This document shows positions 1 to 43,521 of a stretch of 45,907 bases of DNA, piece by piece. Made by a program: the position numbers and the translations under genes. Every line of letters begins with the position of its first letter. Positions within the stretch are counted from its first letter, which is position 1. The notes under the pieces were generated by a model. The model was not told the DNA's origin and searched no databases. It worked only from the letters and a program-made list of their open reading frames with translations. This DNA comes from Thermoleophilia bacterium (GTDB lineage Bacteria > Actinomycetota > Thermoleophilia > BMS3ABIN01), in assembly GCA_041658445.1 (NCBI GenBank), contig JBBAAB010000001.1:1-45907 (forward strand), written 5' to 3'.

Positions 1-127
1 CTAGCGAACTCGCCGGCCAGCTCGCCATATGCGTCGCTTGGCCTGCCGCCGGGCTTGCCCGTATGTTCGGTGTACACCTCCACAAGAGCCGCGCGCGCCT
101 TAGAGGCCGCAAGCTCCTGCCGGCGTG
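1..127. repeat. Terminal direct repeat copy 1 (identical to 45781..45907); circular-closure overlap or terminal redundancy
   Basis: nt 1-127 read base-for-base identical to 45781-45907. Confidence 0.95.
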
Positions 128-323: not shown

Positions 324-352
324 AGTCTACTCCTATTATGTCTAGTTGTCAA
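324..352 (-). promoter_or_regulatory. sigma70-like promoter giving a leaderless start at 317
   Basis: Sense strand reads TTGACA(352-347)-17 nt-TAGACT(329-324)-6 nt-ATG(317). Confidence 0.45.
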
Positions 353-786
353 GCCCACAGGGGCAATTGTTCGCCGTCGTCGTCTGGTATCAGCAACTCC
401 TCGTCAAGACCCTTGACGCTGGCAAGTGCAGCCACCAGTGCATCTACCCTTCGCTTGTCTGCCCGCGCACCCTTTGTCCTCTCACCCACAAGCTCCCGAA
501 ATAGGGCAAAGTCGCTCTTCTTCTTTGCGCGCAGCGGGTACTTGTCAAACAGCCTCACAATGGCCACAAGATCAGGGTGGCGGTAGAACCGAAGCCAGGC
601 GCCGCCGTTAGACTTGGTTAGCCGACCAAATCCGAGCAGGCGACGTATCTCGGCCAAAATGGGCCAGTCGTCCTCTCTCAGGTGAAGGGTAAACGACAGC
701 GTTATGCCGTTTCCGCTGGGGTATGCAGAGAAACAGCCCTCGCCGTCAGTAAATCCAGCCAGCCAATGTCCGAATTCGTCGTCCAT
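349..786 (-). CDS. LAGLIDADG-family homing endonuclease (single-motif, free-standing)
   Basis: N-terminal WLAGFTDGEGCF motif; 145 aa, a typical size; basic C-terminal half. Confidence 0.8.
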   Translation of the reverse strand: MDDEFGHWLAGFTDGEGCFSAYPSGNGITLSFTLHLREDDWPILAEIRRLLGFGRLTKSNGGAWLRFYRHPDLVAIVRLFDKYPLRAKKKSDFALFRELVGERTKGARADKRRVDALVAALASVKGLDEELLIPDDDGEQLPLWA

Positions 787-1217: not shown

Positions 1218-1402
1218 CCGCCGTACCCCCACCCACGCTTTGCCCCAACACCAGCAAGGACATCATGTATTGCCCCTGCCAACGATGCGCCGACCACTGG
1301 CGCGCATGGGCAAAGGAAGCCGTCAAGCCGACCGTTGAATGGATACTTAGCGATACATCGGAGGACAAGAATTGTACGTTGGCGCCTGAGGGTATCAAAT
1401 GA
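1214..1402 (+). CDS. Hypothetical Cys-containing small protein
   Basis: ATGA start/stop coupling on both sides. Confidence 0.6.
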   Translation: MTAVPPPTLCPNTSKDIMYCPCQRCADHWRAWAKEAVKPTVEWILSDTSEDKNCTLAPEGIK

Positions 1403-1611
1403 CACCCTGCATTGACCCCCTGGACTGCGCAATTCGGACCATGCCGTACAAGATTAGAATCGGCAACCGAGTACTGGAGTATGACCCTCTCACAAGACTT
1501 ACACGAGAGATAACGCGTATTCCCAAACAAGAAGACAAGGGCTGGTACTTAGCTGACGGCCACTATCATTATGGCACTACCGTGGACTTGAAGCAGAGTC
1601 CGCACCCATAA
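1399..1611 (+). CDS. Hypothetical protein
   Basis: ATGA coupling with the upstream gene. Confidence 0.6.
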   Translation: MTPCIDPLDCAIRTMPYKIRIGNRVLEYDPLTRLTREITRIPKQEDKGWYLADGHYHYGTTVDLKQSPHP

Positions 1612-1625
1612 GGAGTCTGAGCAAC

Positions 1626-1940
1626 ATGACCAACCTCAAGGCCAGCATCCTCCTCTACCTGCTCCTCTGCGTCCAGGCAGCCGACTGGGGCACTACGGTA
1701 TGGATCATGTCCTTTGGGGGCGTTGAGGCCAACCCCATCATGGCGCCCCTGTTCGCCCTCTCCCCCTGGGTTGCCATCCTGCCCAAGCTTGCCATCGTAG
1801 CCGGCGTGACGCTGCTCTACCTGGCCGCCCGCAAGCAAGATAGACCTCTGGTTATGTGGGGCGTCGCCGCATCCGTCCTTGTGTCCATGCCGCCCGTAGT
1901 CTGGAACCTGATCCAGCTTTGGAATGCCGGGCTTATCTAG
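1626..1940 (+). CDS. Small multi-pass membrane protein (DUF5658-like: DWGTT...EANP)
   Basis: TAAGGAGTCTGAGC RBS context; three hydrophobic segments. Confidence 0.65.
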   Translation: MTNLKASILLYLLLCVQAADWGTTVWIMSFGGVEANPIMAPLFALSPWVAILPKLAIVAGVTLLYLAARKQDRPLVMWGVAASVLVSMPPVVWNLIQLWNAGLI

Positions 1941-2156
1941 CCCAACGGATGCGAGCTAAACTGCAATGCCGAGGGCGGCATAGGGGCACCCGTCGGCGTG
2001 CAACTTGCGCATCTCGAAGTATTCCGCCGTCGATGCCTGGGTACAATTCGGCCAGCAGAATCGGCAGGCGTGTACGTCCCCGTCCCACCAAGCCATTTCC
2101 AAAAGACGCATAGCCTCTAGCCGCCTGGCGTTGTCAGTTTCAGCGACTTGTTGGGC
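1940..2156 (-). repeat. attC-like site b4 (217 bp, long translated loop)
   Basis: Sense strand: GCCCAAC-AAGTC-GCT[G]AAACTG[A]C ... G CAGTTT AGC-TCGCATCC-GTTGGGC. AAACTG/CAGTTT covary. Confidence 0.7.
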
Positions 2157-2258
2157 GGCGTCGAGCCAATCAGCAAACTTCACAGCATGCACATGAATGT
2201 CGGGATCGCCCCGTTCCGAAAGATACTGCCTAAGCAAATCTCTATACCTGCCCATCAT
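1956..2258 (-). CDS. Cassette ORF b4, hypothetical Cys/His-rich protein
   Basis: GGAGAA RBS; the ORF runs through the attC arm and ends at the conserved TAG in the 3' arm (..IAV*). Confidence 0.65.
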   Translation of the reverse strand: MMGRYRDLLRQYLSERGDPDIHVHAVKFADWLDAAQQVAETDNARRLEAMRLLEMAWWDGDVHACRFCWPNCTQASTAEYFEMRKLHADGCPYAALGIAV

Positions 2259-2275
2259 TTCTCCTTCGGGCGACC

Positions 2276-2486
2276 GCCCAACGAGCTAAACTGCGAGCCG
2301 CCGTGCCATACAGGCTGGCTTCGGGCAACGATCATCGTAGGTTTGACACCCACAGTCTGGGCATGTCTTCAGGCGGCGCCCGCCGTGTGCGGCCAACTCC
2401 AATTCGCAGCCAGCAAGATGCCCGTTCTGGAACCCACACTCGGGGCAAATACTGAAGGCGGCGTCAGTTTCAGCGAGTTGTTGGGC
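2276..2486 (-). repeat. attC-like site b3 (211 bp, long translated loop, short 3' spacer)
   Basis: Sense strand: GCCCAAC-AACTC-GCT[G]AAACTG[A]C ... G CAGTTT AGC-TC-GTTGGGC. Confidence 0.7.
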
Positions 2487-2750
2487 GGCCAAGTCGGCAA
2501 TCCAAGTGGTCTCGTTCCCGCGCATCATCGCCGTCACAACTATGTCGAAGGCCTCTTTGCATGCCGGGCACGTCATGGACTGCTGAAATCTTACCGGCCT
2601 CCAAGCTTCAGCGAGTTGTTGGGCGGCGACATCATCTAACAAGGCCAACAAAGGCAACACCGGTATCAGGGCATTCCGAGAGTGCCGCGCAAGTGCCCTC
2701 TCTGCCCGAGTGCGAATGTCATCCAGGCCCTTCTGTGTTACGTACTTCAT
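2286..2750 (-). CDS. Cassette ORF b3, hypothetical zinc-ribbon-rich protein (CPAC, CPECG, CPDCGC)
   Basis: GAGGGAAC RBS; contains an orphan attC 5' arm plus the b3 arm in frame (AAQQLAEA.. twice). Confidence 0.65.
   Translation of the reverse strand: MKYVTQKGLDDIRTRAERALARHSRNALIPVLPLLALLDDVAAQQLAEAWRPVRFQQSMTCPACKEAFDIVVTAMMRGNETTWIADLAAQQLAETDAAFSICPECGFQNGHLAGCELELAAHGGRRLKTCPDCGCQTYDDRCPKPACMARRLAV
2603..2630 (-). repeat. Orphan attC 5' arm (R''+L'' only) inside ORF b3
   Basis: Sense strand: GTCGCCGCCCAACAACTCGCTGAAGCTT, with no partner 3' arm before the next 5' arm. Confidence 0.6.
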
Positions 2751-2776
2751 CGTTCCCTCATTCGGGCGTGGCGACC

Positions 2777-2865
2777 GTCCAACGGATGTGAGCTAAGCCG
2801 CTCGCCGAACCCCATCATTCGTGTCGTTGTCGCCAACAAGAGTCGGCTTCAGCGAGTTGTTATAC
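2777..2865 (-). repeat. attC-like site b2 (89 bp)
   Basis: Sense strand: GTATAAC-AACTC-GCT[G]AAGCCG[A]CTC ... GAG CGGCTT AGC-TCACATCC-GTTGGAC. Confidence 0.8.
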
Positions 2866-3044
2866 GGCAGCGCCCCGTGCTTGCGCGCATACCTATACTC
2901 GGCGTAATGAGATAGAACCACGTGCTCCCGCACGTCGTCTTCCCATCCCTCAAACCCACAGAGCACACATGAGCCCTTGGTCTGAAGCAGGCCGCCGTGC
3001 AGATTCTTAGCAATCCAAGCATCAATCCTCTGTCTGATCCTCAT
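2793..3044 (-). CDS. Cassette ORF b2, hypothetical protein
   Basis: AGGAGGAA RBS; ends at the TAG of the attC 3' arm (..RAA*); reads the 5' arm in a different frame (YNNSLKPT). Confidence 0.65.
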   Translation of the reverse strand: MRIRQRIDAWIAKNLHGGLLQTKGSCVLCGFEGWEDDVREHVVLSHYAEYRYARKHGALPYNNSLKPTLVGDNDTNDGVRRAA

Positions 3045-3066
3045 GCCATTCCTCCTGTGCGCTGCC

Positions 3067-3187
3067 GTATAACGGATGCGAGCTAAGCTGCCGGGCCTTT
3101 GGTGGCGAGGTAAGACGCCTTTGACTCGGCATCCCTCAATAGCCCCGCCAGCCGCTTGGTGCGGTCAGCTTCAGCGAGTTGTTCGAC
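3067..3187 (-). repeat. attC-like site b1 (121 bp)
   Basis: Sense strand: GTCGAAC-AACTC-GCT[G]AAGCTG[A]CCG ... CGG CAGCTT AGC-TCGCATCC-GTTATAC. Confidence 0.8.
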
Positions 3188-3310
3188 GGCGACTTCATCG
3201 CGCAGGCGCAGAAACTCCGCCGTGACCCGTTGTATGTCATCGACTCGCAGCGTGGCAACGAGCGCTATGCACCAAATCTTGTCGCGGCTTGCATCTCTAG
3301 GATCAATCAT
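3083..3310 (-). CDS. Cassette ORF b1, hypothetical protein
   Basis: GGAGGGAAC RBS then ATG at 3310; ends at the attC TAG (..PAA*). Confidence 0.65.
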   Translation of the reverse strand: MIDPRDASRDKIWCIALVATLRVDDIQRVTAEFLRLRDEVAVEQLAEADRTKRLAGLLRDAESKASYLATKGPAA

Positions 3311-3333
3311 CGTTCCCTCCATTCAGGCGTGGC

Positions 3334-3354
3334 GACCGTCGAACTAGTGATTCG
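3334..3354 (-). other. Array-leading junction AATCACTAG|TTCGACGGTCGCC (attI-like site or promoter remnant)
   Basis: The same 11-mer AATCACTAGTT heads array A at 5770-5791. Confidence 0.4.
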
Positions 3355-3388
3355 GCGTCAAAATCGACGCATATCTCGCTTCTCGGGC

Positions 3389-3700
3389 CTACTTTGCAAC
3401 TTGCTTTGTCGTCGCGTTCGCCCGCCTTCGCAGGGCGTCGTATGCCTCTTGTCCCATTCTCTCAATCACCCACTCGTAGAACAGCGTCGGATTCCCATGC
3501 GCCCACAGGTGGCACGCAAAACAGAGAGAGTAAGCGTTGTCTTCGTCCCACCTTACTGATTTGTTCCTGCGGCTGAACACATGGGCACAGTGCAAACCAG
3601 CATGTTTTGGCCCATAATACTTGTGACACCTCTCGCAGCCATGCCCGGCCCTGGCACGAATGAAGTCCGAGAACTCGGCGTCCCTCTTGTCGCGCTTCAG
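3389..3700 (-). CDS. NinG/Rap-like zinc-finger HNH-type protein; start codon unresolved
   Basis: FSDFIRAR..GCERC..HCAHVFSRR..N..LCFACH pattern. The conserved N-terminal part lies upstream of the first ATG/GTG/TTG (TTG at 3595). The frame is open only to 3736, with only CTG candidates (3700, 3724). Confidence 0.55.
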   Translation of the reverse strand: MKRDKRDAEFSDFIRARAGHGCERCHKYYGPKHAGLHCAHVFSRRNKSVRWDEDNAYSLCFACHLWAHGNPTLFYEWVIERMGQEAYDALRRRANATTKQVAK

Positions 3701-4005
3701 CGGTCTATCTCCCTCTGAAGCCAGCGAGGCAAATCCTCAAAGTCCTGATTTGGATCGCGCCACCACTCAATGAGTCTCCACACCAGCCCTGCCGCCTCCG
3801 CCAAGTCGTCCTCCGTCTCGGCCAACTGGCGGCGGGCGTCGTCGCGCTCGCGACGCGCCCACCACGCCTCACTCTTCAGGGCCCATCGTTCATATTCATC
3901 CATCTTCTCACTCCTTCCCCGCGTCCCGGTGCGGACAATGGTCTGCGAGTTGTCTACATGCGTGAACGCACGGTAGCCCTCAATCTCTGTCCGGTGGTCA
4001 TCCAT
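3697..4005 (-). CDS. Hypothetical Trp/Arg-rich protein
   Basis: AGGAGG RBS 7 nt upstream of ATG 4005; follows attC a5. Confidence 0.6.
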   Translation of the reverse strand: MDDHRTEIEGYRAFTHVDNSQTIVRTGTRGRSEKMDEYERWALKSEAWWARRERDDARRQLAETEDDLAEAAGLVWRLIEWWRDPNQDFEDLPRWLQREIDR

Positions 4006-4622
4006 CTTTCGCCTCCTGGCGACCGCCCAACGAGCTGAGCTGCCGGGCCTTTGCAGCGGCAACCGCTGAACATGCACAGCTTCTCTATGGGATGGTGCAC
4101 CGATCTGGGGTGCCCGGCATTGTCAGTTTCAGCGACTTGTTGGGCGGCGGGCTTCTCCTTGAGGGCGGCGCGGGCTTCGTCCAGTCTCATCAGCGCCAAT
4201 GTCGTCTCCGAGGCGTGGGGCCCAAGGTCGGACTCCAACTCCATGTAGGATTCAGCGGCCTTGCGGAACTTCCCCAGCGCCTCGATGCGGGCCACTAGCC
4301 AATCAACCTCCGTCAGCATTACTTCGTATGTGCCCGGCAGGGCCAGGCGATCCTTGATTGTTTGCAGGTTCATGGCTTCTCCTTTGAGGGCGGCACGAAG
4401 GGCGTCGAAGTCCTCTTCGGGAACCGCCACCCATCTGCCGATGAACTTCGGGTCATCGTAGATGATGACACTGCGCCTCAATTGTGCCACCTCCTCCAGC
4501 GCCTCGATGCGGGCTTCCAAGGCGGATACGGCAGCAACGGCCATCCACTTATGATTGCTCTCCCCAGCTACCTCGGCAGCATTGAAACAGTTTGCGACAA
4601 ACTCCGCTATCTTTGGTATCAT
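3954..4622 (-). CDS. Hypothetical coiled-coil protein with a C-terminal Cys/His module; reads through attC a5
   Basis: ATG at 4622. The usual TAG in the attC 3' arm is CAG here, so the ORF runs 24 codons further and overlaps the next gene start. Confidence 0.55.
   Translation of the reverse strand: MIPKIAEFVANCFNAAEVAGESNHKWMAVAAVSALEARIEALEEVAQLRRSVIIYDDPKFIGRWVAVPEEDFDALRAALKGEAMNLQTIKDRLALPGTYEVMLTEVDWLVARIEALGKFRKAAESYMELESDLGPHASETTLALMRLDEARAALKEKPAAQQVAETDNAGHPRSVHHPIEKLCMFSGCRCKGPAAQLVGRSPGGERWMTTGQRLRATVRSRM
4025..4145 (-). repeat. attC-like site a5 (121 bp, Cys/His-module loop, short 3' spacer)
   Basis: Sense strand: GCCCAAC-AAGTC-GCT[G]AAACTG[A]C..GCCGGGC ... GCCCGG CAGCTC AGC-TC-GTTGGGC. 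Confidence 0.7.
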
Positions 4623-4625
4623 CCT

Positions 4626-4913
4626 CTACTCCTTCCCTGCGAGGGCGGCAATGTACGCGTCCTTCTCGTCCGCCGTCATGCCCTCATACGGGTTGCAAGC
4701 CGGGCCATTCCCCTCGACTTGTTGGGCGGCGAGAGCCTCCGGAGAGCCGCAATACGGGCAGAACGACACGGAATCCTGCATCATCCAGTCTGATGCCTCA
4801 GCCTCTTTGCAGGAGGCCACAAACGGGAGGGCCAACACCACATAGCCCATGTCGCAGTTGCCACACACCACAACCGGGAACTCATACGGGATGTGCAATT
4901 TCATCGTTGTCAT
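4626..4913 (-). CDS. Cassette ORF a4, hypothetical Cys-rich protein with an orphan attC R'' relic
   Basis: GAGGAGAG RBS; an internal CGCCGCCCAACAAGTCGAGG relic (4714-4733) is translated as AAQQVE. Confidence 0.6.
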   Translation of the reverse strand: MTTMKLHIPYEFPVVVCGNCDMGYVVLALPFVASCKEAEASDWMMQDSVSFCPYCGSPEALAAQQVEGNGPACNPYEGMTADEKDAYIAALAGKE

Positions 4914-4939
4914 TCGCTCTCCTCACGGGCGTGGCGACC

Positions 4940-5065
4940 GCCCAACGAGCTGAGCTGCCGGACTCACCACTCGCCAGGCATATCGTCAATGTAGCCCTCA
5001 TCAATGACGTGTTCAAGCATCTGCTTTGCAATTGAAGGCCGGTCAGCTTCAGCGAGTTGTTCGAC
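4940..5065 (-). repeat. attC-like site a3 (126 bp)
   Basis: Sense strand: GTCGAAC-AACTC-GCTGA[A]GCTG[A]CCGG ... CCGG CAGC TCAGC-TC-GTTGGGC. Confidence 0.75.
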
Positions 5066-5182
5066 GGCGAGGCGTCTGGCAACTCTAAACCCAGCCATAA
5101 ACCCGACGCGATGCTGATCTCGCCACCCGCGGCGCCCGGCCTGGCGCTTCCACCATTTGTCAAACTCTTCTGTTGCGGGCAT
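4964..5182 (-). CDS. Cassette ORF a3, hypothetical protein
   Basis: ATG at 5182; reads through the 5' arm (AVEQLAEAD) and stops in the loop. Confidence 0.6.
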   Translation of the reverse strand: MPATEEFDKWWKRQAGRRGWRDQHRVGFMAGFRVARRLAVEQLAEADRPSIAKQMLEHVIDEGYIDDMPGEW

Positions 5183-5205
5183 TTCGCACTCCAGTTAGTG
5201 GCGCC

Positions 5206-5335
5206 GTTGAACGGATGCGAGCTAAGCTGCCGGGCCTTTGCAGCGGCATCCGCTGAACATGCACAATTTCTCCGTGGGATGATGCAATGATGGGGGGTGC
5301 CCACATTGGCAGGCCCGGTCAGCTTCTTGTTGGGC
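5206..5335 (-). repeat. attC-like site a2 (130 bp, Cys/His-module loop)
   Basis: Sense strand: GCCCAAC-AAG-AAGCTG[A]CCGGGCC ... GGCCCGG CAGCTT AGC-TCGCATCC-GTTCAAC. Positions 5210-5325 are a perfect inverted copy of 10798-10913. Confidence 0.8.
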
Positions 5336-5449
5336 GGCGAGACCGCGGGCATAGCCCGCCTCGAATCCCTTGCGAGAATCAAACTTGTTTGCGTCCTGAT
5401 CCACCTCGGGACTCAGCCACCACTTCTCGAACTCGCTCATCTCGGGCAT
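5222..5449 (-). CDS. Cassette ORF a2, hypothetical protein ending in module RACQCGHPPSLHHPTEKLCMFSGCRCKGPAA
   Basis: GGAGACGAGG RBS; ends at the attC TAG. Confidence 0.65.
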   Translation of the reverse strand: MPEMSEFEKWWLSPEVDQDANKFDSRKGFEAGYARGLAAQQEADRACQCGHPPSLHHPTEKLCMFSGCRCKGPAA

Positions 5450-5472
5450 TTCCTCGTCTCCTTCGGGCGACC

Positions 5473-5561
5473 GTCCAACGGATGTGAGCTAAGCCGCTCG
5501 GCTAACCCTCTTCGACCTGGAACCGCGCTTGGGCCGAGTCGGCTTCAGCGAGTTGTTAGCC
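5473..5561 (-). repeat. attC-like site a1 (89 bp)
   Basis: Sense strand: GGCTAAC-AACTC-GCT[G]AAGCCG[A]CTCGGC ... GCCGAG CGGCTT AGC-TCACATCC-GTTGGAC (15 bp stem, 2 bulges). Confidence 0.85.
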
Positions 5562-5752
5562 CGCTCACCACGGGCAATGTACCGATACGAAATTCCTTCC
5601 TCAAACTTGTAGAGGAAGCATGCGCGCCCGAGACCGTCCACATAGCCAACCTCGGTGGCGTTCTCTGAGACAACGCGGGCAACCTCACCCTTGCTATTGC
5701 CAAAGGCGGAGACCAGGAACTCGATTCTGGGAGCGTCAGTCACCTTCGCCAT
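5489..5752 (-). CDS. Cassette ORF a1, hypothetical protein
   Basis: GAGAGAGGG RBS; ends at the attC TAG (..RAA*). Confidence 0.65.
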   Translation of the reverse strand: MAKVTDAPRIEFLVSAFGNSKGEVARVVSENATEVGYVDGLGRACFLYKFEEGISYRYIARGERANNSLKPTRPKRGSRSKRVSRAA

Positions 5753-5769: not shown

Positions 5770-5791
5770 TGCGGGCTAACTAGTGATTATA
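5770..5791 (-). promoter_or_regulatory. Array-A leading junction TATAATCACTAG|TTAGCCCGC (perfect -10 hexamer abutting the first cassette; attI-like?)
   Basis: Sense TATAAT at 5791-5786, with the cassette boundary 6-7 nt downstream. No good -35. The AATCACTAGTT 11-mer is shared with 3334-3354. Confidence 0.4.
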
Positions 5792-5827
5792 CGGCCGCTG
5801 TGTAAACTTGCGCGCCGAGTGTGCAAA

Positions 5828-7556: not shown

Positions 7557-7633
7557 GGTGCGGGGCCGGATTCGAACCGACTGGTCATGCCTAAATGCTT
7601 CCCCGTTCGGGCCATTTATACAGCCGCCCGCAC
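7557..7633 (-). ncRNA. tRNA-like element: intact acceptor stem and T-arm, no foldable anticodon arm
   Basis: Sense strand: GTGCGGG...GTCGG-TTCGAAT-CCGGC-CCCGCAC-C. The acceptor pairing is 7/7 bp and the T-loop is canonical. A weak D-stem is present (GCTG/TGGC). No 5-bp stem with a 7-nt loop exists in the middle 45 nt. Confidence 0.4.
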
Positions 7634-7657
7634 CATGAACCCGGAAGTCGCTCATAT

Positions 7658-10008: not shown

Positions 10009-10626
10009 ATGATCGGCACACCGAAGACTCTCAAGGTTCATGTAAGCCGCAAGCTGGGGGACAACGAATTCGGCTCTTACGGCGTGGATGCAGAACTAGA
10101 GGTAAGCCTTCCCCCCGACGCCAATCGAGACGAGGCGTTTGACGAGAACGACGCGTGGCTGACCGCGGCGGTAGGGCGGAGCATGGCCGAGAAGAAGGCT
10201 TCGATCCAGAAGATGCAGGCAGAGGCGGCCGAGGCAAAGAAGGGGCAGACCGTTGAGGCCGAAGAGGCAGAGACAAAACAAGACAAGCCGAAGGCAGACG
10301 CAAAAGAAGGGGAGGAACTGACGTTCAAGTGTGTCAAGTTCACCCTTGCGAAGCTGCCGGACAAGAAGTTCAAGTTGGAGCTGTACCCGGAGATCAAAGA
10401 CGCGCCAGGCAAGTATCCGACGATCAAGTTCACCGCCGAACGCGAGAAGATGTGGGACATGCTGCATGATGTCGCAGACGACTACGACTTCTCGGACTTG
10501 CCCGTTGAGTATGGTTGTGAATTTCTCGTCCACTACGCCATTGGTAGAGAGTTCGAGATCAAGGCCGGAGAACACAAGGGCGAGAAGTCGCACTACAAGG
10601 ACCTTTTGTCCATCGTTGCCATGTAG
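10009..10626 (+). CDS. Hypothetical acidic/Lys-rich protein
   Basis: AAGGAGA RBS. The G of its TAG stop is the base before the first cassette boundary. Confidence 0.6.
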   Translation: MIGTPKTLKVHVSRKLGDNEFGSYGVDAELEVSLPPDANRDEAFDENDAWLTAAVGRSMAEKKASIQKMQAEAAEAKKGQTVEAEEAETKQDKPKADAKEGEELTFKCVKFTLAKLPDKKFKLELYPEIKDAPGKYPTIKFTAEREKMWDMLHDVADDYDFSDLPVEYGCEFLVHYAIGREFEIKAGEHKGEKSHYKDLLSIVAM

Positions 10627-10658
10627 TTGGGCGGTCGCCACGCCAGAGAGAGGGAACA

Positions 10659-10901
10659 GTGGACATCAACATGGCTTTAGTTGACGAGGCTAGGCGCTAT
10701 CATGGTTTCTGCGGGCACGGGGCAGACTTCGATGTGTGTACGGCGCTTGCCTGCCGTCTAGCGCGGCACATTTTTCTCGCCGCCCAACAAGTCGCTGAAG
10801 CTGACCGGGCCTGCCAATGTGGGCACCCCCCATCATTGCATCATCCCACGGAGAAATTGTGCATGTTCAGCGGATGCCGCTGCAAAGGCCCGGCAGCTTA
10901 G
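10659..10901 (+). CDS. Cassette ORF c1, hypothetical protein ending in the Cys/His module
   Basis: GAGGGAAC RBS then GTG; ends at the attC TAG (..GPAA*). Confidence 0.6.
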   Translation: MDINMALVDEARRYHGFCGHGADFDVCTALACRLARHIFLAAQQVAEADRACQCGHPPSLHHPTEKLCMFSGCRCKGPAA

Positions 10902-10917
10902 CTCGCATCCGTTAGGC
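10782..10917 (+). repeat. attC-like site c1 (136 bp, Cys/His-module loop)
   Basis: GCCCAAC-AAGTC-GCT[G]AAGCTG[A]CCGGGCC ... GGCCCGG CAGCTT AGC-TCGCATCC-GTTAGGC. Confidence 0.85.
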
Positions 10918-10938
10918 GCACCCAGAAGGAGAAGGCCA

Positions 10939-11136
10939 ATGACCAAAGAAGAGGCCCTGGCATCAGTCGAGAAGATCAGGGAAGAGGCGGATGACGATGA
11001 GGTGGCACATTCGCATGAGGATGGTCTGCGCGCCCAGTTCATTGCGCATGTGGCGGAGATGCCCGGCGAGTTGGGCGAGTTGGCCAAGATTGTTCTCTCA
11101 ACGGACGAGATTTCGTTCGGCCGCTGGTGCGCCTAA
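10939..11136 (+). CDS. Cassette ORF c2, hypothetical acidic protein
   Basis: AAGGAGAAGG RBS; the TAA stop lies inside R'' (GCCTAAC). Confidence 0.65.
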   Translation: MTKEEALASVEKIREEADDDEVAHSHEDGLRAQFIAHVAEMPGELGELAKIVLSTDEISFGRWCA

Positions 11137-11218
11137 CAACTCGCTGGAGCGGACGCCTGTTGGCGAGCCGAGTAGATCGTTAGGGTTCGGGGCGCAGCTT
11201 AGCTCCGATCCGTTGGAC
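11131..11218 (+). repeat. attC-like site c2 (88 bp)
   Basis: GCCTAAC-AACTC-GCT[G]GAGCGG[A]CGCC ... GGCG CAGCTT AGC-TCCGATCC-GTTGGAC. Confidence 0.8.
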
Positions 11219-11242
11219 GGTCGCCCGAAGTTGGAGGTTGAA

Positions 11243-11602
11243 ATGCCCGCACCGTATCTGTCTATAGAGGCAATGGCCGCATGGATTGCTCTGGACCGAG
11301 AGAACAATGGTGCCAGCAAGGAGTGGTGGGATTGGGCCGTATCCGCCTATGGTGTCGCCGCCCAACAAGAAGCTGAAGCTGACGTGGCCGTTGGATCGCA
11401 TCTGAAGCGGGTCCTGGAAGATGACGAGATCGTGGGCGAAGGGGGCTCGTTCCACATGGAGCGCATGGACGACGACCACATTTGGTTCCAGGTGGATAGC
11501 ATCGCGTTCGACCTCGATGTGAAGAGGGGCAAACTGTTGTGGAGGCCGCAGTGCAATGGGGGCTGGCCCGCTCTGGCTCTCTTGCTGGGCCACGCAGCTT
11601 AG
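11243..11602 (+). CDS. Cassette ORF c3, hypothetical protein
   Basis: GGAGG RBS; reads through the 5' arm (AAQQEAEAD) and ends at the attC TAG (..GHAA*). Confidence 0.65.
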   Translation: MPAPYLSIEAMAAWIALDRENNGASKEWWDWAVSAYGVAAQQEAEADVAVGSHLKRVLEDDEIVGEGGSFHMERMDDDHIWFQVDSIAFDLDVKRGKLLWRPQCNGGWPALALLLGHAA

Positions 11603-11618
11603 CTCCGGTCCGTTATAC
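11360..11618 (+). repeat. attC-like site c3 (259 bp, long translated loop)
   Basis: GCCCAAC-AAGAA-GCT[G]AAGCTG[A]CGTGG ... CCACG CAGCTT AGC-TCCGGTCC-GTTATAC. Confidence 0.7.
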
Positions 11619-11638
11619 GCACGGAAGATGAGGGTCAA

Positions 11639-11968
11639 ATGGACAACTTGAAAGCATGGATGTTGGAGGCTGCCGACGAGGAGCCAATCCTGGCAGTCGT
11701 GATTGGCGAGATGGGATGGGGCGACTACGGCAGCGATGCTGTGCCCCAGTATCAGGAACAGCGTCGCGGCGAGGTCCTGTCTTGGGACGAGGCCGCCCCG
11801 ATGATCGACTACGAGTTTAGATCGGGGTATGGCGCGCCGAGATGCAATGCGATTGTGGCGTGGACGGCAAGCAAGGTGATCTCGATTTCGCAGTATGACG
11901 GCTCCACGTCGGTGTTCACGCTCCCGCGCAATCCGACCGCACACATGCCCGGCATGCCGGGGGGCTAA
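11639..11968 (+). CDS. Cassette ORF c4, hypothetical protein
   Basis: GAGGG RBS; stops before the attC. Confidence 0.65.
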   Translation: MDNLKAWMLEAADEEPILAVVIGEMGWGDYGSDAVPQYQEQRRGEVLSWDEAAPMIDYEFRSGYGAPRCNAIVAWTASKVISISQYDGSTSVFTLPRNPTAHMPGMPGG

Positions 11969-11977
11969 CGCCCGTGC

Positions 11978-12066
11978 GTATAACAACTCGCTGAAGCCGA
12001 CTCGGCCCAAGCGGGGTTCAAAGTCGAAGAAGGTTGGCCACGCAGCTTAGCTCCGGTCCGTTATAC
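11978..12066 (+). repeat. attC-like site c4 (89 bp)
   Basis: GTATAAC-AACTC-GCT[G]AAGCCG[A]CTCGGCC ... GGCCACG CAGCTT AGC-TCCGGTCC-GTTATAC. Confidence 0.8.
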
Positions 12067-12089
12067 GGCTCCACGCAGGAGGTGGAAAC

Positions 12090-12281
12090 ATGAAGTACAT
12101 CAAGGTCTCTCGGAGCGACATGCCCGGCTCCTATACCGATACCCTAAAGGGGGCGGCGAATTGTGTCGAGGGGGAGTTTGACGGAATTGAGGGGGTGCCA
12201 GTCGGAACGTCTATCACCCTGACGGTGGTCGAGATGTCCGAGGAGGAATACGCCAAGTTGCCGGAGTTCGATGGTTGGTAG
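12090..12281 (+). CDS. Cassette ORF c5, hypothetical acidic protein
   Basis: AGGAGGTGG RBS; stops 2 nt before the R'' extension. Confidence 0.65.
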   Translation: MKYIKVSRSDMPGSYTDTLKGAANCVEGEFDGIEGVPVGTSITLTVVEMSEEEYAKLPEFDGW

Positions 12282-12283
12282 CC

Positions 12284-12310
12284 GTATAACAACTCGCTGG
12301 AGCGGACGCC
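12284..12310 (+). repeat. Truncated attC (5' arm only; deletion derivative of the c2-type site)
   Basis: GTATAAC-AACTCGCTGGAGCGGACGCC is joined directly to the CGCAGTTGGAGGATGAAATG leader. Confidence 0.7.
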
Positions 12311-12327
12311 CGCAGTTGGAGGATGAA

Positions 12328-12738
12328 ATGCCAGCACAAGAAGAGTTCGATTTGGAGTTCTCACGCCGAGGGAATTATGGGACGCCCAAGACGGTCTGCC
12401 GGACATGGTATGAGTTGGGATGGTTTGCCTCACGGCGCGCCGCCCAACAAGAAGCTGACCGGTGCCCAGACCGCGGAGAGGAGGCATGGCGCGCAGTGTT
12501 GGATTTGTGCGAGCCTCTACGGCCCGACGAGACAGGAATTGGAAGGCTGTTGGGCATTCGTGCGTGGGCGCTTTCGGCGCTTGCAGAACTAGAGCCCGAC
12601 AAACAGTGTGCCTGCGGTCGAGAGGGTTCGCTAGACCACGAGGACTTCTGCATGCCCAAGGGGATGTGGCCGAGGCATTGGATAACGGGGGGGGCTATAG
12701 ACCCCGATGCCGCCCCCAAGGAGAAGCCCAATGGCTAA
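12328..12738 (+). CDS. Hypothetical protein containing an orphan attC 5' arm (12438-12463)
   Basis: GGAGGATGAA RBS; internal CGCCGCCCAACAAGAAGCTGACCGG is translated as AAQQEADR. Confidence 0.6.
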   Translation: MPAQEEFDLEFSRRGNYGTPKTVCRTWYELGWFASRRAAQQEADRCPDRGEEAWRAVLDLCEPLRPDETGIGRLLGIRAWALSALAELEPDKQCACGREGSLDHEDFCMPKGMWPRHWITGGAIDPDAAPKEKPNG

Positions 12739-13009
12739 CGGACCCCTAAGTGAACGAATGCTTGAGGAAGCCTATGTCGGCGGCGTCGCCGGATGGGACG
12801 ACATGATTGACGAGGTATCCAAGATGGAGGCCCGCATCGAGGCGCTGGAGGAGGTAGAGGATGCGGCACGCCCCATTTCAGAATGGGCGCATGAACAGTA
12901 TGAAGTCCGCGGCGTTATGACCGCCGGGGGAACAGCGGAAGATGCCGCTCTAATCGACCTTGTGAAGTATCTCGATCAATGTTTGGCCTCCCTCGCGGGG
13001 AGGCCATGA
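12731..13009 (+). CDS. Hypothetical protein
   Basis: GGAGAAG RBS. Confidence 0.55.
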   Translation: MANGPLSERMLEEAYVGGVAGWDDMIDEVSKMEARIEALEEVEDAARPISEWAHEQYEVRGVMTAGGTAEDAALIDLVKYLDQCLASLAGRP

Positions 13010-13407
13010 GTGAACTAGAGGCATTCTTCGGGCCGTCAGAGGGAGCCAGTCATATGCCGGATCATGTCCGACGCACCTCCTGGCCGCGTCAGCCGGAACA
13101 TCTAAGGCGTATCCTGGATGTGTTTCAACAGGAGGCCGGGTTTGAGCCGATTGGCGTCCTGAAACAAACATGGATTGCCGGCGCCAAGGCATGGCACTCT
13201 GTATTCGGTGAAAACACCTCTCTATTGATAATGGCCATTGAGTACATGAGACAGAAGGAGTTGATGATTGCCTCTCCGAGGTCGTGTATTACAGTGGCCT
13301 TAGAGTTACAACGTAAGGGAGAGGGGCAGAGTAAGGCCGACTACTTCCGCGAATATGCCAAGAAGTTAGACGCTGCCGCGGACTTGGAAGTAGACGAGGA
13401 AGACTAA
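13006..13407 (+). CDS. Hypothetical protein
   Basis: ATGA coupling; GGGGAGG RBS. Confidence 0.6.
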   Translation: MSELEAFFGPSEGASHMPDHVRRTSWPRQPEHLRRILDVFQQEAGFEPIGVLKQTWIAGAKAWHSVFGENTSLLIMAIEYMRQKELMIASPRSCITVALELQRKGEGQSKADYFREYAKKLDAAADLEVDEED

Positions 13408-13422
13408 GGAGTCTGGGCGACT

Positions 13423-13674
13423 ATGAACACTCCGGAGCGCGTTGGAAGATGGGCGCTGGGCGACATAGCCGAGAGGAAGCACGATAGGAAGTTGTATCGC
13501 GTAGTCGGGTTCATTCTCCACCCGGCGGTTGCGTTTGCCCCGCTAGACGATGGGCCGGAAATGGTTCAAGTTGCCGGATGCCCAAATGAGTTGAACGAAT
13601 TGGTATGCTATACTCCGTCGCCCAACGATACTTTGGGCGCGGACCAAACGAACAAGTCCCCGGCAGGGGCATAA
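13423..13674 (+). CDS. Hypothetical protein
   Basis: TAAGGAGTCTGGGC RBS context. Confidence 0.6.
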   Translation: MNTPERVGRWALGDIAERKHDRKLYRVVGFILHPAVAFAPLDDGPEMVQVAGCPNELNELVCYTPSPNDTLGADQTNKSPAGA

Positions 13675-13689
13675 GGGAGGAGGACGGGG

Positions 13690-13860
13690 ATGACTGAACA
13701 CCTAACCCCCGAGGACGTTGTGGAAGAAGTCAAGAGGATCGTCTGGGTCAATCCAGACGATTACAGGCAGGCACTGGACCAGTTGGACGACATAGCCGAT
13801 TTGGTCAAGAAGTGCCGAGTTAATTCTGATGCCCCGAAAGGGGATGGGAAGGAGGAATAG
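13690..13860 (+). CDS. Hypothetical small acidic protein (56 aa)
   Basis: GGGAGGAGGA RBS; hand translated. Confidence 0.5.
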   Translation: MTEHLTPEDVVEEVKRIVWVNPDDYRQALDQLDDIADLVKKCRVNSDAPKGDGKEE

Positions 13861-24983: not shown

Positions 24984-25274
24984 CTATGCGTACCAGACGC
25001 AGGCAACGCCACCCGCGCCGGTCAGGTCAACGTAACAGGCGGTCGAGAAGTAGACGCCGCCCAGTTCTCGGAAGTCGATGAAGTGCGACTGCCCGATGAT
25101 CGTATTGCACTCGAACATGTGCGTTCCCGTTGCGTCAACGGCGTTGTGGAACTCCGCCTTTGTGGCAGCCGCCCCCCCATACAGCAGAATGGCCATGACG
25201 TTGCACGGGCTCGTCCCATTTACCTGCCCGTCGGCTGCAACTCTCTTGAATGCGTACTGGTTTAGGCTTTTCAT
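24984..25274 (-). CDS. Small virion-module protein, paralog of 24673..24975
   Basis: ATGA coupling with the GT2 stop; alignment by eye to the neighbour. Confidence 0.6.
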   Translation of the reverse strand: MKSLNQYAFKRVAADGQVNGTSPCNVMAILLYGGAAATKAEFHNAVDATGTHMFECNTIIGQSHFIDFRELGGVYFSTACYVDLTGAGGVACVWYA

Positions 25275-25972
25275 GCAAGGGCTACTCCCGCGTGCGCGCA
25301 CGCAATATCCCAGTCGATCAGAACCTCGAAGCCCGCCCCAATAACTTTGCGGCAAATCTCAAGGTCCTCTCCCAGATAGAGGCTGTAGGGTCTTTCCCCC
25401 ACCGCCTCCGCAACTTCTCGGCTCATCAGCCAGCACCCCGCCCCCGCACCCCCGACGCTCTCCAGCCCCTTGCCCGGCACCCGTCTAAGTCGATACTGGT
25501 GGATTCCCTTCGCGTCGAGTTCGTGATAGTCGTACACGCACGGGAAATACGGTTCCGCCTTGATCCTGTACCATCCCCCAACCATTGGCTTCTTGTGCGC
25601 CAAGAGTCTGTCCAAGAAGTCGGGAGGAGGAAGAACGTCGCTGTCCAGCATCACCAACCACTCGGAACTTGTCTTTAGGAAGTTCTCGTGGAGGGTGTTC
25701 CTGGCATCAAGAATGTACGTCGCCTGGGTTGTGCATATGTTGTCCCACGGCATCATGGGAAGCCTTAGCATGTTGACAACCCACTTGGAGAAGATCACCT
25801 CGTCCAACGGAAAGGCCCACGTCACGGCCATTCTCCGCAGCTTAACAACCTGCGTGTTGTGGATCGTCTCTCCGGTAACATCCTTGGTGATGTGCTGTGA
25901 GTCTTTAGGGGCCAACTCTGCTAGTTTGTTGGCAAATGCCGCGCTTGATCCGCCGTGTCGTTTCCTCGTCAC
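25271..25972 (-). CDS. Family-2-like glycosyltransferase (start uncertain: GTG 25972 or ATG 25831)
   Basis: LVMLDSDVLPPPDF (DxD) with flanking GT-A-like segments. The GTGA overlap with the upstream stop supports 25972. Confidence 0.6.
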   Translation of the reverse strand: MTRKRHGGSSAAFANKLAELAPKDSQHITKDVTGETIHNTQVVKLRRMAVTWAFPLDEVIFSKWVVNMLRLPMMPWDNICTTQATYILDARNTLHENFLKTSSEWLVMLDSDVLPPPDFLDRLLAHKKPMVGGWYRIKAEPYFPCVYDYHELDAKGIHQYRLRRVPGKGLESVGGAGAGCWLMSREVAEAVGERPYSLYLGEDLEICRKVIGAGFEVLIDWDIACAHAGVALA

Positions 25973-26613
25973 AAAACGCTCTCCAGGGATACCCTCGGAT
26001 ACACCTCTAGACTTCCGCCAGAGGCATTCAGAACCTCTACTCCCAACTTCTCGCAACTCCTCTTGGCGTTCTCGTGCGCCCGTATCAGAGTCCGATTGAA
26101 GCGGTCGTACTCCTCTGGCGTACATATCCTCTGGCAGTAGGCGGGGTCGAAGTGGTTAGTATCCTCTTCTCCTCTGGGGCCGTACAGGTCGCATCCGAGG
26201 AGGACGATCTGCTTTGCCCCAAGTAGAACTGCCTTCTGCATCGCTATGAACAATCCTCCTCCAAACCTACAGTACGTCGGGAGGTGCCACTCTTCCGGAA
26301 TACCCGTCTGTTCGACGTTCATGTGGTCGTGCGCGTCGCACCTTTGGAAATACTCCACGTTGTCCCTGGTTCGGTGCGGCTCAAAGGCGCTTGCGAAGTC
26401 GCTCCTAACCAGGAACTTGCAGTCTTCCGCGAGTATCTCGTCCAGCGGCCACTCGTCTTTCGTGTTGTGGTCCGCCATGATCCAGTACGTTGGCCGCCAG
26501 TTAGTAGTCGGGAACAACAAGTGGATGCGGTTTGTCGCACACGCAATACCAGTCAAGTTGTCAAGGTTCACGTGGGCCAGTGACGGCCCATTGCCAAGAA
26601 CAAAGACGCGCAT
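25969..26613 (-). CDS. GNGPSL Rossmann-type glycosyltransferase (CstII/GT42- or Maf/DUF115-like), paralog D
   Basis: MRVFVLGNGPSL N-terminus, LLGCDLYG, DTNHFD; paralogous to 40129-42151. Confidence 0.6.
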   Translation of the reverse strand: MRVFVLGNGPSLAHVNLDNLTGIACATNRIHLLFPTTNWRPTYWIMADHNTKDEWPLDEILAEDCKFLVRSDFASAFEPHRTRDNVEYFQRCDAHDHMNVEQTGIPEEWHLPTYCRFGGGLFIAMQKAVLLGAKQIVLLGCDLYGPRGEEDTNHFDPAYCQRICTPEEYDRFNRTLIRAHENAKRSCEKLGVEVLNASGGSLEVYPRVSLESVL

Positions 26614-40136: not shown

Positions 40137-40788
40137 GAATGTCCTCCAGCCTCACGCGCGGGTAGGCGCGTAACTCCCCGCCAATTCCCGCGTTGGCAAT
40201 CTTGACGCCCCGCTTTTGGCACTCCTGCATTGCAATACCGTGGGCCTCTTCTAACACCCGGTTCCACCTTCTTGCCTGTTCGGCCTTGTAGGCGTCTGGG
40301 GGGAGGTATCCTCTAATGAACCAGTTCTGATTGTCGGCGTCTCTGTAGCCGAGGTCACACCCAACCACGTAGAGTTCGTCGTATCCCATACGTACGGCCA
40401 ACTGGATGGCCATAAGAGCCGACCCCCCAAAACGACATAGTTGCGGGAGGTGCCACGGCCCGCCCCATTGTTCTGGTTGGGTCGAGTCCATTGGTGACAT
40501 GTGCTCACAGACGACCTCTCGGTGTAGATTTGGACGATCCGGAACGTCGCATTCTATGTCGTCTCGGATGAAACACTCCTCGCCCCAGTCCAGGTGTTTT
40601 ACGATGTCCTCTTGCCAGACCCCTTGACTCTGCCTCGTTCTGTCGAACGCACACCAGTATGTCGGGCGCCACCGGGTTTTAGGATAGAGAAGATGTATCC
40701 TGTTCAGCCCGAACGTTACTTCGTCCGCGAGTCTATCCATCGGAGTTCTGTTCAGGCTTGGCCCATTGCCAATTACGAAGCAGCGCAC
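40129..40788 (-). CDS. GNGPSL glycosyltransferase paralog A (CstII/Maf-like)
   Basis: VRCFVIGNGPSL (GTG start, GGAGGAAG RBS), YVVGCDLGY. Confidence 0.6.
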   Translation of the reverse strand: MRCFVIGNGPSLNRTPMDRLADEVTFGLNRIHLLYPKTRWRPTYWCAFDRTRQSQGVWQEDIVKHLDWGEECFIRDDIECDVPDRPNLHREVVCEHMSPMDSTQPEQWGGPWHLPQLCRFGGSALMAIQLAVRMGYDELYVVGCDLGYRDADNQNWFIRGYLPPDAYKAEQARRWNRVLEEAHGIAMQECQKRGVKIANAGIGGELRAYPRVRLEDILG

Positions 40789-43208: not shown

Positions 43209-43326
43209 CTGTTCGCCTTCCACGCCTTCTTGAGGTTCTTCATTCGGGTCTTCGCAATCTCCTCTTGCCTCTTTCGTTCTGCCGCCTGAACTGCTTGCGC
43301 CTTCTGTAGGTTCGCGTCCCTTACTC

Positions 43327-43521
43327 CTAGATGTCGATTTCTGATCGTAGTCTGAATAGAACGGTATGCAGTGTCTCGTACCAGTCGGCCAGCCGCTTTC
43401 CTGGAATCCTGGCGGTGTACGAATCCTCAGTAAATGCAAAGCCCTCGGTGGACTTCATTTCATTCAACACCTCCCAGGCTTTGGAAACCAGCTTTTCGTC
43501 CGAGTCGATTTTTTCAGTCAT
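43327..43521 (-). CDS. Hypothetical small protein
   Basis: GAGGAG RBS; ATGA coupling. Confidence 0.5.
   Translation of the reverse strand: MTEKIDSDEKLVSKAWEVLNEMKSTEGFAFTEDSYTARIPGKRLADWYETLHTVLFRLRSEIDI

Follow-up and report, generated by a model that had tools for sequence, protein, structure and literature searches.

Two arrays of integron-type gene cassettes in a complete phage genome that lacks an integrase

Introduction

Integrons are usually seen as bacterial devices, and the attC clusters so far known from phages are few, small and predicted CALINs (clusters of attC sites lacking an integrase). A survey of 10,705 cultured-phage genomes identified 17 such CALINs, each with at least two predicted sites, and five of the six virulent-phage attC sites tested were recombined by the integrase IntI1 at G|TT, the bar marking the crossover (Qi et al. 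2023, Front Microbiol; PMC9892861). Here we analyze the repeats that accompany small genes in a 45,907-nt stretch of DNA (contig JBBAAB010000001.1, positions 1 to 45,907; hereafter the window), which is a complete phage genome, and describe two arrays of integron-type cassettes within it. Like the phage CALINs of that survey, the window holds attC sites and co-oriented cassettes in a phage without intI. It differs from them in that one uncultured phage of 45.8 kb carries two divergent arrays (~13 cassettes in all) that feature a conserved leader, that its relatives carry different cassettes, that its attC family has no blastn match in INPHARED, and that the signature by which a cassette start pairs with its own attC site could be shown statistically. 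The signature itself is textbook integron biology and phage CALINs were already reported in 2023, but the window is much richer than those reported, with two arrays of about 13 cassettes, a lineage of variable content and a new attC family.

Sedentary chromosomal integrons (e.g., the Vibrio cholerae repeats) resemble the arrays described here in their many cassettes of unknown function, in attC sites that are highly similar within an array, and in the paralogous or duplicated cassettes, relic sites, insertion sequence (IS) elements and group II introns found within arrays. Here, in contrast, a phage carries the arrays, which are short, lie in early operons and have no adjacent integrase. IntI enzymes also insert cassettes at double-stranded G|WT sites of genomes outside the att sites ("attG"), where they are expressed near promoters (Loot et al., 10.1101/2022.09.11.507474). 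The junctions CACTAG|TT and ATGTAG|TT of the window fit the G|WT core; however, the target here is phage DNA, and related phages have the leader AATCACTAG|TT in conserved form and use it repeatedly, making it more attI-like than a random attG. We consider it probable that the two arrays consist of integron-type cassettes moved in trans by an IntI-type integrase of the host.

Cassette starts are complementary to their own attC sites

An initial annotation made from the sequence had claimed that the first bases of each cassette after G|TT are complementary to the start of its own downstream attC and not to the attC upstream of it, and had named a permutation against mismatched cassette pairs as the check. 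All of its strings and coordinates proved correct when the region and both arms were re-read. This own-end relationship was reportedly a founding observation of integron biology, made on 59-base elements by Hall, Stokes and colleagues in the 1990s.

For 13 cassettes of the window (a1 to a4 and b1 to b4 in the left array, c1 onward in the right), we defined three points, namely the upstream G of G|TT, the AAC of the cassette's own R'' box and the G of its own R' box, and set the opening bases of the cassette against the reverse complement of the stretch that ends in the AA of its own R''. The complementary runs of the own pairs measure 9, 4, 3, 8, 8, 14, 4, 8, 8, 11, 4, 12 and 10 nt, a total of 103. 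When starts and R'' boxes were re-paired at random, the mean total was 45.5 (standard deviation 8.7, maximum 96), and none of 200,000 re-pairings reached 103, which places own pairs far above mismatched ones and bears out the annotation. The longest run is that of b2, where TTATACGGCAGCGC at 3072-3059 (-) faces GCGCTGCCGTATAA at 2873-2860 (-); in c4 the matching ends lie at 11613-24 and 11972-83. At the 12 sites that have both partners, the contiguous R'' and R' boxes total 45, which is the random level, against 93 for the own pairs, consistent with the poor contiguous matches already noted for site b1 (5/7) and site a2 (4/7).

The result was replicated in 32 non-redundant cassettes carrying the same repeat on other contigs, where own pairs total 276 while shuffles gave 115.6 ± 12.4 (maximum 174) and none of 100,000 reached the observed value; the contiguous pairs of these outside cassettes total 112, versus 247 for their own pairs. 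Counted from the G, own-pair complementarity is at least 88% through position 9, 75% at position 10 and 53-66% at positions 11-13, and falls to chance from position 14. Contiguous pairs range from 31% to 91% by position, with 50% at positions 4 and 8, and are lower than own pairs at all variable positions from 4 to 13. Given that own complementarity is high to position 9, falls over positions 10-13 and is at chance at 14, an excised cassette of the family would have an R stem of 9-13 bp.

These data support the identification of the repeats as integron-type attC sites and of the own-end complementarity as the classical cassette signature. Complementarity alone shows that both ORF-proximal flanks travel together, with the crossover somewhere inside attC.

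Architecture of the attC family

The repeats were located through two conserved arms (TCGAGGCC/TCGCATCC), which on the gene strand read xxxxAAC-AACTC-GCTGAAGC for the 5' arm and GCTTAGCTC-GCATCC-GTTxxxx for the 3' arm. On the coding strand a canonical site runs R''(7 nt, ..AAC)-5 nt-GCT-G-6 bp-A-stem...stem-6 bp-AGC-8 nt-R'(GTT..). Across 45 distinct sites aligned from the window and other contigs, the AAC, the GTT and both extrahelical positions are invariant, and some R boxes depart from the R/Y consensus (RYYYAAC/GTTRRRY), as in GTATAAC/GTTATAC. The extra bases of the top strand are G and A, 6 bp apart, and the bottom strand reads T-N6-C.

On this structure 90.8% of cells are paired, and changes on both sides are found at 15 of 23 pairs overall, 12 of these being among the 16 L-helix pairs. 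Covariation scores 0.299, compared with 0.118 ± 0.010 for shuffled data (0 of 500 shuffles reach it) and at most 0.104 for slid registers. Covarying blocks include GCT/AGC, GTT/AAC, GGT/ACC and GAT/ATC in S1, and AAGCCG/CGGCTT, AAGCTG/CAGCTT, AAACTG/CAGTTT, GAGCGG/CCGCTC, CAGCTG/CAGCTG, ATGCTG/CAGCAT and GAATTG/CAATTC in S2.

The layout is that of the attC site of aadA1 (class 1, Tn21/R100), which reads TCTAAC-AATTC-GTT-C-AAGCCG-A-CGCCGC...GCGGCG-CGGCTT-AAC-TCAAGC-GTTAGA and has 100% matches in plasmid R100 and thousands of other plasmids, just downstream of aadA1 and next to intI1. When the two are aligned (R''-AATTC-GTT-C-AAGCCG-A-stem in aadA1, R''-AACTC-GCT-G-AAGCCG-A-stem in the phage), the same 6-bp block AAGCCG/CGGCTT is seen and the unpaired bases fall on the same arm; the aadA1 cassette starts after G|TT at attI1, and the phage cassettes likewise start after G|TT. 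The aadA1 cassette of R100 shows the own-end match imperfectly (GTTAAAC versus GTCTAAC). The phage differs in having no intI or attI1, in an 8-nt rather than a 6-nt 3' spacer, in an excised R stem that extends to 9-13 bp, and in many sites that are much longer and lie inside ORFs. The first extra base of the top strand is also G in the phage and C in aadA1, which makes the bottom strand T-N6-C rather than T-N6-G. Most attC sites are of the T-N6-G type, but IntI1, IntI2*, IntI3 and SonIntIA recombine T-N6-C sites efficiently, at least as well as T-N6-G sites (Larouche and Roy, PMC3053210). Reading the sites in the reversed orientation, with the plus strand as the top strand in the left arm, was rejected, since the 5-nt spacer and the extra bases would then occupy the arm opposite to that in aadA1.

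Eight window sites are canonical (a1, b1, b2, b4, c1, c2, c3 and c4). Nine of the 12 two-armed window sites measure 88-136 nt; b3, b4, c3 and several sites in relatives (including those at 966 and 1333 of the 44.8-kb IMG/VR contig L086) span 184-286 nt, and their loops encode Cys/His-rich C-termini while the arms still pair. At the DNA level the 5' arm is conserved both within ORFs, where it occurs in two or more reading frames (AAQQLAE and YNNSLKP), and beyond them. In a paralogous cassette family with the N-terminus MPxxEEFxKWW the arm is in frame and translates to AAQQ(L/V)AE(A/T)D, and alternative Cys/His-rich C-termini are specified by the attC loop. The in-frame 5' arms of the window, which have counterparts in relatives, are the following.

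2482-2626: in-frame 5' arm
4141-4147: in-frame 5' arm
5331-5337: in-frame 5' arm
10782-10801: in-frame 5' arm
11360-11379: in-frame 5' arm
12440-12460: in-frame 5' arm

Organization of the two arrays

The left arm carries eight co-oriented attC sites and no intI. Its array is made up as follows.

5778-5812, minus strand: array leader, TTTACA-N9-TATAATCACTAG|TT, an attI-like junction with its G at 5780, conserved in the related-phage fragments L164 and L178
5479-5779, minus strand: cassette a1, with ORF 5489-5752 and a canonical 89-nt attC at 5473-5561; own ends match 9/9
5212-5478, minus strand: cassette a2, with ORF 5222-5449 and attC 5206-5335
4946-5211, minus strand: cassette a3, with ORF 4964-5182 and attC 4940-5065; own ends match 9/10
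4031-4945, minus strand: cassette a4, with ORF 4626-4913, a relic R''/5' arm at 4723 and another ORF that extends into attC 4025-4145
3345-4030, minus strand: non-cassette segment that interrupts the array, with a NinG-like gene at 3389-3595 and a second leader AATCACTAG|TT whose G is at 3344
3073-3343, minus strand: cassette b1, with ORF 3083-3322 and a 121-nt attC with canonical arms at 3067-3187; own ends match 8/8
2783-3072, minus strand: cassette b2, with ORF 2793-3044 and an 89-nt attC at 2777-2865; own ends match 14/14
2282-2782, minus strand: cassette b3, with ORF 2286-2750 and a 211-nt attC with a coding loop at 2276-2486
1946-2281, minus strand: cassette b4, with ORF 1956-2258 and a 217-nt attC with a coding loop and canonical arms at 1940-2156

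The a2 site has a 5' arm short by 6 nt, from which S1 and the first extrahelical base are gone, and its body encodes the C-terminal 41 aa common to c1. The 3' arm of a3 is a variant without GCATCC, and that of a4 is a variant in which TAG is mutated to CAG; a4 is probably two fused cassettes. The ORF of b2 terminates at a TAG within L', and b3 has two 5' arms (AAC at 2620 and 2482) together with a variant 3' arm. The b4 site is the last of the left array, with unique DNA beyond it.

The right arm carries four complete attC sites and relics.

10610-10628, plus strand: start of the right array, ATGTAG|TT, with its G at 10626, at the stop codon of a conserved 226-aa gene
10627-10911, plus strand: cassette c1, with ORF 10659-10901 and a 136-nt attC with perfect arms at 10782-10917
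10912-11212, plus strand: cassette c2, with an 88-nt attC at 11131-11218; own ends match 11/11
11213-11612, plus strand: cassette c3, with ORF 11243-11602 and a 259-nt attC at 11360-11618
11613-12060, plus strand: cassette c4, with ORF 11639-11968 and an 89-nt attC at 11978-12066; own ends match 12/12
12061-12310, plus strand: cassette c5, with ORF 12090-12281 and only the 5' arm of an attC left (AAC at 12288); own ends match 10/10
12311-12738, plus strand: relic cassette c6, with an ORF to 12738, a relic R''/5' arm at 12446 and no 3' arm

No attC lies upstream of the right-array start, and the leader is absent there, the first cassette directly following ATGTAG|TT; L178 has the leader element in this place. 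The stop codon of the c2 ORF is the TAA within R'' (11134-11136), and the arms of the c3 site pair perfectly around a coding loop of ~200 nt. The c4 site is chimeric, with a 5' half of the a1 type (CGACTCGGCCCAAGCGGGGTTC...) and a 3' half, including GTTATACG, identical to that of c3, and its inner stem is mismatched for this reason. At 12284-12330 (+) the 3' half of the c5 site and the start of the next cassette are gone, with GGACGCC jumping to CGCAGTTGGAGGATGAAATG when compared with the c2 site and the c3 cassette; this looks like a deletion between short GxCGCC repeats. The relic c6 is the decaying distal end of the array.

The 226-aa gene upstream of the right array has no relatives in IMG/VR and no exact protein on record, and among the relatives of a 293-aa gene (67 loci, identity at most 52%) none is accompanied by the phage attC family. 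The c4 protein family occurs as an ordinary early gene without attC flanks in unrelated phages, and its status as a plain early gene elsewhere suggests that the cassette pool may have been built from phage genes.

A conserved leader and array polarity locate the crossover

The initial annotation had placed the crossover at G|TT. While the complementarity taken alone leaves the point within attC, the claim gains support from the sequences at which arrays begin and end. The leader AATCACTAG|TT precedes three different cassettes, at 5780 and 3344 of the window and at 917 of L164. It is followed by TTAGCCCGC (cassette a1) at 5780, by TTCGACGG (cassette b1) at 3344, and in L164, at the position equivalent to window 3344, by TTGGGCGG, which belongs to a different gene. 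L178 has a longer leader, TTTACA-N9-TATAACTAGTAG|TT, followed by TTATACGG. In these comparisons the sequences diverge immediately past the GTT. The conserved consensus is TTTACA-N9-TA(T/G)AAT(C)ACTAG|TT, and AATCACTAGTT is the candidate double-stranded insertion target. The copies are as follows.

Window 5778-5812, minus strand: leader
Window 3343-3354, minus strand: leader
L164 ~885-919: leader
L178 ~44-73, reverse strand: leader

In the window as in L164, the second leader is immediately preceded by a NinG-like gene. The leader core TACA-N7-TGTA forms a small inverted repeat, and no IntI-binding repeats were recognized in the leader. Its hexamers are spaced by 9 nt, which is not sigma-70-like, and the leader itself has no canonical sigma-70 match; promoter-like matches were found at 6492, 6892, 7805 and 8830. 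Intrinsic-terminator-like sites are not enriched (13 found versus 14.2 expected), and many cassettes share one start, TTGGGCGGTCGCC. In carrying different first cassettes, the leader appears to behave as an attI-like site.

The arrays open with a bare G|TT half-site and close with a complete attC followed by unique DNA, as at these four ends.

Window 1946: array end with complete attC
L172 1683: array end with complete attC
L164 1554: array end with complete attC
L086 2457: array end with complete attC

This polarity is that predicted for a crossover in R' and the opposite of that for a crossover in R'', and because one leader is shared by different cassettes and the arrays have this polarity, the crossover can be narrowed to the GTT.

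The attC family in other phages and in bacterial-looking contigs

The exact 18-nt 3' arm was found in arrays on L086 (eight cassettes), on the viral contig L157, which is the same sequence as L163, and on about a dozen contigs from metagenomes. In IMG/VR, the 5'-arm 16-mer gave 89 loci, nearly all single chance matches, with only L086 real, and a blastn search found no INPHARED phage that matches the attC family. Several contigs derive from related phages, with L164 encoding a homologue of the NinG-like gene, L172 and L168 homologues of the window genes at 12979-13858, and L178 the end of the 226-aa gene; the related phage contigs carry the same attC family with different cassettes. One cassette of L172 (414-1013, plus strand) encodes a methyltransferase-domain protein with a DPPY motif, identified by a weak Pfam Methyltransf_11 match (E = 0.0013, below the curated cutoff), and would echo the orphan methyltransferases reported in phage CALIN cassettes.

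Movement between arrays is illustrated by the orthologue of b2 in L172, which is 88% identical and stands in an array preceding a homologue of the right-arm gene 12979-13407, although b2 belongs to the left arm. The orthologue ends in TTAGGCGG.../...CCGCCTAA and b2 in TTATACGG.../...CCGTATAA; two R-box positions have changed at both ends, 250 nt apart, and the changes are compensatory.

The same family is present in arrays of bacterial appearance. L174 has ~10 sites, cassettes of 450-800 bp encoding HEAT/TPR and RQC-domain proteins, and two IS transposases of the rve family. L176 encodes a group II intron reverse transcriptase (1269-3332, minus strand) directly after a site, and L195-L197 have one family site beside the same kind of intron among ordinary bacterial genes (L195 4991-7082). 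In attC-targeting group IIC introns the reverse transcriptase gene lies immediately downstream of attC. Reverse transcriptases 75-90% identical to that of the intron number in the hundreds in metagenomes.

The phage genome

At 45,921 nt, the source contig (ENA ERZ27247322 k141_646634; NCBI protein MFA5808728.1) is a k141 assembly. The 127 nt that open the window are repeated at its end, and because of this terminal overlap the window is a complete, circularly assembled phage genome of 45,780 bp. The phage encodes the following proteins.

In the window: SU10-type major capsid protein (E = 1e-49)
In the window: large terminase
In the window: GH25 lysozyme
In the window: carbohydrate-binding tail-type protein
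349-786, minus strand: LAGLIDADG endonuclease
44830-45372, minus strand: HNH endonuclease
3389-3595, minus strand: NinG-like protein (HNH-type, short)

Neither the window nor its right array matches any INPHARED phage by megablast or blastn, the genome has no close relative among 50,697 cultured-phage records, and the capsid protein is less than 30% identical to that of any cultured phage. The listing of the contig in a Thermoleophilia bin at NCBI is a weak hint at best of the host. Amid the structural genes, at 40129-43439 and 25271-26613 (-), is a cluster of MptE-like (weak matches), methyltransferase and glycosyltransferase genes, which suggests modification of virion or cell-surface glycans.

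Two arms of small genes diverge at ~7.7 kb, where the cumulative GC skew also turns (minimum near 7000). Genes of the left arm are on the minus strand and those of the right arm on the plus strand; either arm has one array, oriented with its genes, and the arrays sit in the early operons of the phage. Both arrays are directed away from the GC-skew minimum. Were replication to start at this minimum, the leading-strand template of each arm would contain the recombinogenic bottom strands. Sedentary chromosomal integrons have the same arrangement.

Between the two divergent early arms, at 7557-7634 (-), is a tRNA-like element with an 8-bp acceptor stem GGTGCGGG/CCCGCACC and a T-arm GGTTCGAATCC, followed by A-CTA. 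ARAGORN calls no tRNA at this position, and the best Rfam match is tRNA-Sec at 21 bits (E = 0.12), under the gathering score. The element could be a degenerate tRNA, an attP-like remnant or a tRNA-like RNA element.

Probable mobilization by a host integrase and the evidence against it

In the model that we consider probable, the bottom strand of each attC would fold into a hairpin made up of the R box (AAC/GTT), an unpaired spacer of 5 nt on one side and 8 nt on the other, and an L stem with extrahelical T and C 6 bp apart. A cassette unit would begin at the TT of G|TT and finish at the G of the following R'. Once it is excised as a circle, its first 9-13 bases would complete the R stem by pairing with the bases before its own R''; as long as it stands in the linear array, these ends would appear as an inverted repeat around the ORF, with contiguous R'' and R' boxes that mismatch. 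The first insertions may have been made into G|TT targets in double-stranded phage DNA, namely the leader AATCACTAG|TT, which has early promoter-like sequence upstream of it, and a TAG|TT where a gene ends. Further cassettes would be gained or lost through exchange of attC with attC or of the leader with attC, and would pile up in the direction of early transcription. Each would be read from early promoters, with its own putative ribosome-binding site 15-35 nt after G|TT. Since the phage encodes no integrase, the most likely catalyst would be an integron integrase (a tyrosine recombinase of the IntI type) that the infected host supplies in trans and that acts on single-stranded phage DNA, and the arrays may still be mobile.

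The initial annotation had spoken of an integron, and for the attC sites and cassettes that description holds; the locus is, however, not a complete integron. No Pfam match to a tyrosine or serine recombinase was obtained among all ORFs of at least 200 aa on both strands of the complete genome, and because the genome is complete and has no tyrosine recombinase, the arrays of the window are CALINs.

This absence is also the first of several observations that weigh against the model. No integrase was found in L174, L176, L162, L172, L173 or L181, or around the relatives of the group II intron. The 18-nt 3' arm occurs in no array among 185,579 species-representative genomes (GTDB); the four single matches there have no 5' arm and were rejected as family members, being attributed to chance. 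The Rfam scan of the whole window returned no matching family, although Rfam lacks a curated attC model. Folded singly, the sites have energies only modestly better than those of shuffles (z of +0.5 to -3.0), and since these energies are weakly informative the case for attC rests on geometry and covariation and not on thermodynamics. Several sites exceed the usual attC range of 57-141 nt, four window sites have arm deletions (a2, a3, a4 and b3), and the window holds relics, namely c5 without its 3' half and three further 5' arms (4723, 2620 and 12446).

Further difficulties come from the joining of ORFs and attC bodies. The orthologous ORFs of b2 and L172 cassette e1, with their inverted-repeat ends, stand between different attC bodies. 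Between a2 and c1 only the attC-encoded C-terminal 41 aa are common (95% identity), the N-terminal parts being unrelated, while c3 and L086 cassette d6 have only the N-terminal 49 aa in common, up to the 5' arm (67% identity), with unrelated C-termini. An ORF with its inverted-repeat ends is thus not faithfully linked to its downstream attC body, contrary to what a simple cassette model predicts. Together with the c4 chimera, these cases point to additional exchange at the conserved 5' arm, perhaps by short-homology recombination or top-strand events and possibly by an enzyme other than IntI. N- and C-terminal modules appear to recombine independently at the in-frame 5' arm.

Alternative explanations

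A more far-reaching proposal, which we put forward tentatively, is that an integrase-less, probably virulent phage lineage has adopted the cassette format as its own means of exchanging accessory genes, with the conserved, promoter-proximal leader AATCACTAG|TT serving as an attI-like entry site for each early arm, a pool of phage early genes to draw on and attC arms kept in frame. Loops of up to ~230 nt would then encode alternative Zn-ribbon-like C-termini, the sites would double as boundaries of protein-domain modules, and catalysis would fall to a hijacked host IntI or to a still unrecognized recombinase.

It is unlikely, though less so than the explanations that follow, that the cassettes are truly mobile but that IntI acting at G|TT is not their mover, or not the only one. 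A phage-encoded or other recombinase, top-strand recombination at AA|C of R'', or short homology in the 16-18-nt arms may instead move ORFs together with their inverted-repeat ends. The complete phage genome without an integrase fits this explanation, as does the complementarity, which suits a crossover anywhere inside attC. So do the irregular junctions, in which orthologous ORFs have different attC bodies on both sides (b2 versus L172 e1), one body follows unrelated N-termini (a2 versus c1), homologous N-termini precede unrelated bodies (c3 versus L086 d6) and site c4 joins two bodies, and the occurrence of the c4 family as an ordinary early gene in unrelated phages without attC flanks. However, a bare G|TT start and a complete attC end are the polarity of a bottom-strand crossover at R', the extrahelical bases on the '' arm 6 bp apart have exactly the geometry that IntI enzymes read, and the same family is found in bacterial-looking arrays. 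No candidate recombinase was seen in the phage, where only nucleases of the HNH, LAGLIDADG and NinG-like types were found.

We regard as very improbable a third explanation, that the repeats are intergenic or 3'-terminal stem-loops of tandemly duplicated phage genes, spread by duplication and homologous recombination and not by site-specific recombination. Such stem-loops could possibly serve in RNA processing, as terminators or as mRNA-stabilizing hairpins, or the repeats could be conserved coding sequence (AAQQLAEAD). The paralogous proteins of several cassettes (MPxxEEFxKWW; AAQQ(L/V)AE(A/T)D), with the 5' arm inside ORFs, the many cassettes that start alike with TTGGGCGGTCGCC, and the position of the arrays in early operons, where phage processing hairpins are common, would all suit it. 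Yet duplicated stem-loops should match best between contiguous arms, and here contiguous R'' and R' pair at the random level while own ends match; the permutation tests largely refute the explanation, and the initial annotation was right to favor the integron signature over it. The 5' arm is, moreover, conserved in two or more reading frames and outside ORFs, the stems covary across unrelated loop sequences, unrelated genes carry sites (a1, b2, c2, c4, c5 and the weak-Pfam methyltransferase-domain protein in L172), and the family extends to bacterial-looking arrays.

The least probable explanation is that each ORF is a miniature transposon with 9-14-bp terminal inverted repeats, inserted into a pre-existing hairpin: ORFs with their inverted-repeat ends do act as a unit between different attC bodies, a group II intron adjoins a site of the phage attC family, and elements that target attC exist (IS1111-attC elements and group IIC-attC introns), but no transposase is present, no target duplication was seen, the inverted repeats always start exactly at the TT/AA of the invariant GTT/AAC, no attC half precedes the first cassette of either array, and the repeats are the outer R stem, as in ordinary cassettes (the start and R'' of aadA1 also match imperfectly).

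Implications for integron and phage biology

The cassette signature can here be proved from sequence alone in a complete phage genome. That attC sites can lie inside coding sequence and tolerate very long coding loops bears on how sites are defined in integron-finding software. The lineage also offers a system for asking how ordinary genes become cassettes, whether phages ferry cassettes between integrons, and whether phages swap early, possibly anti-defense, genes by means of a host integrase acting in trans.

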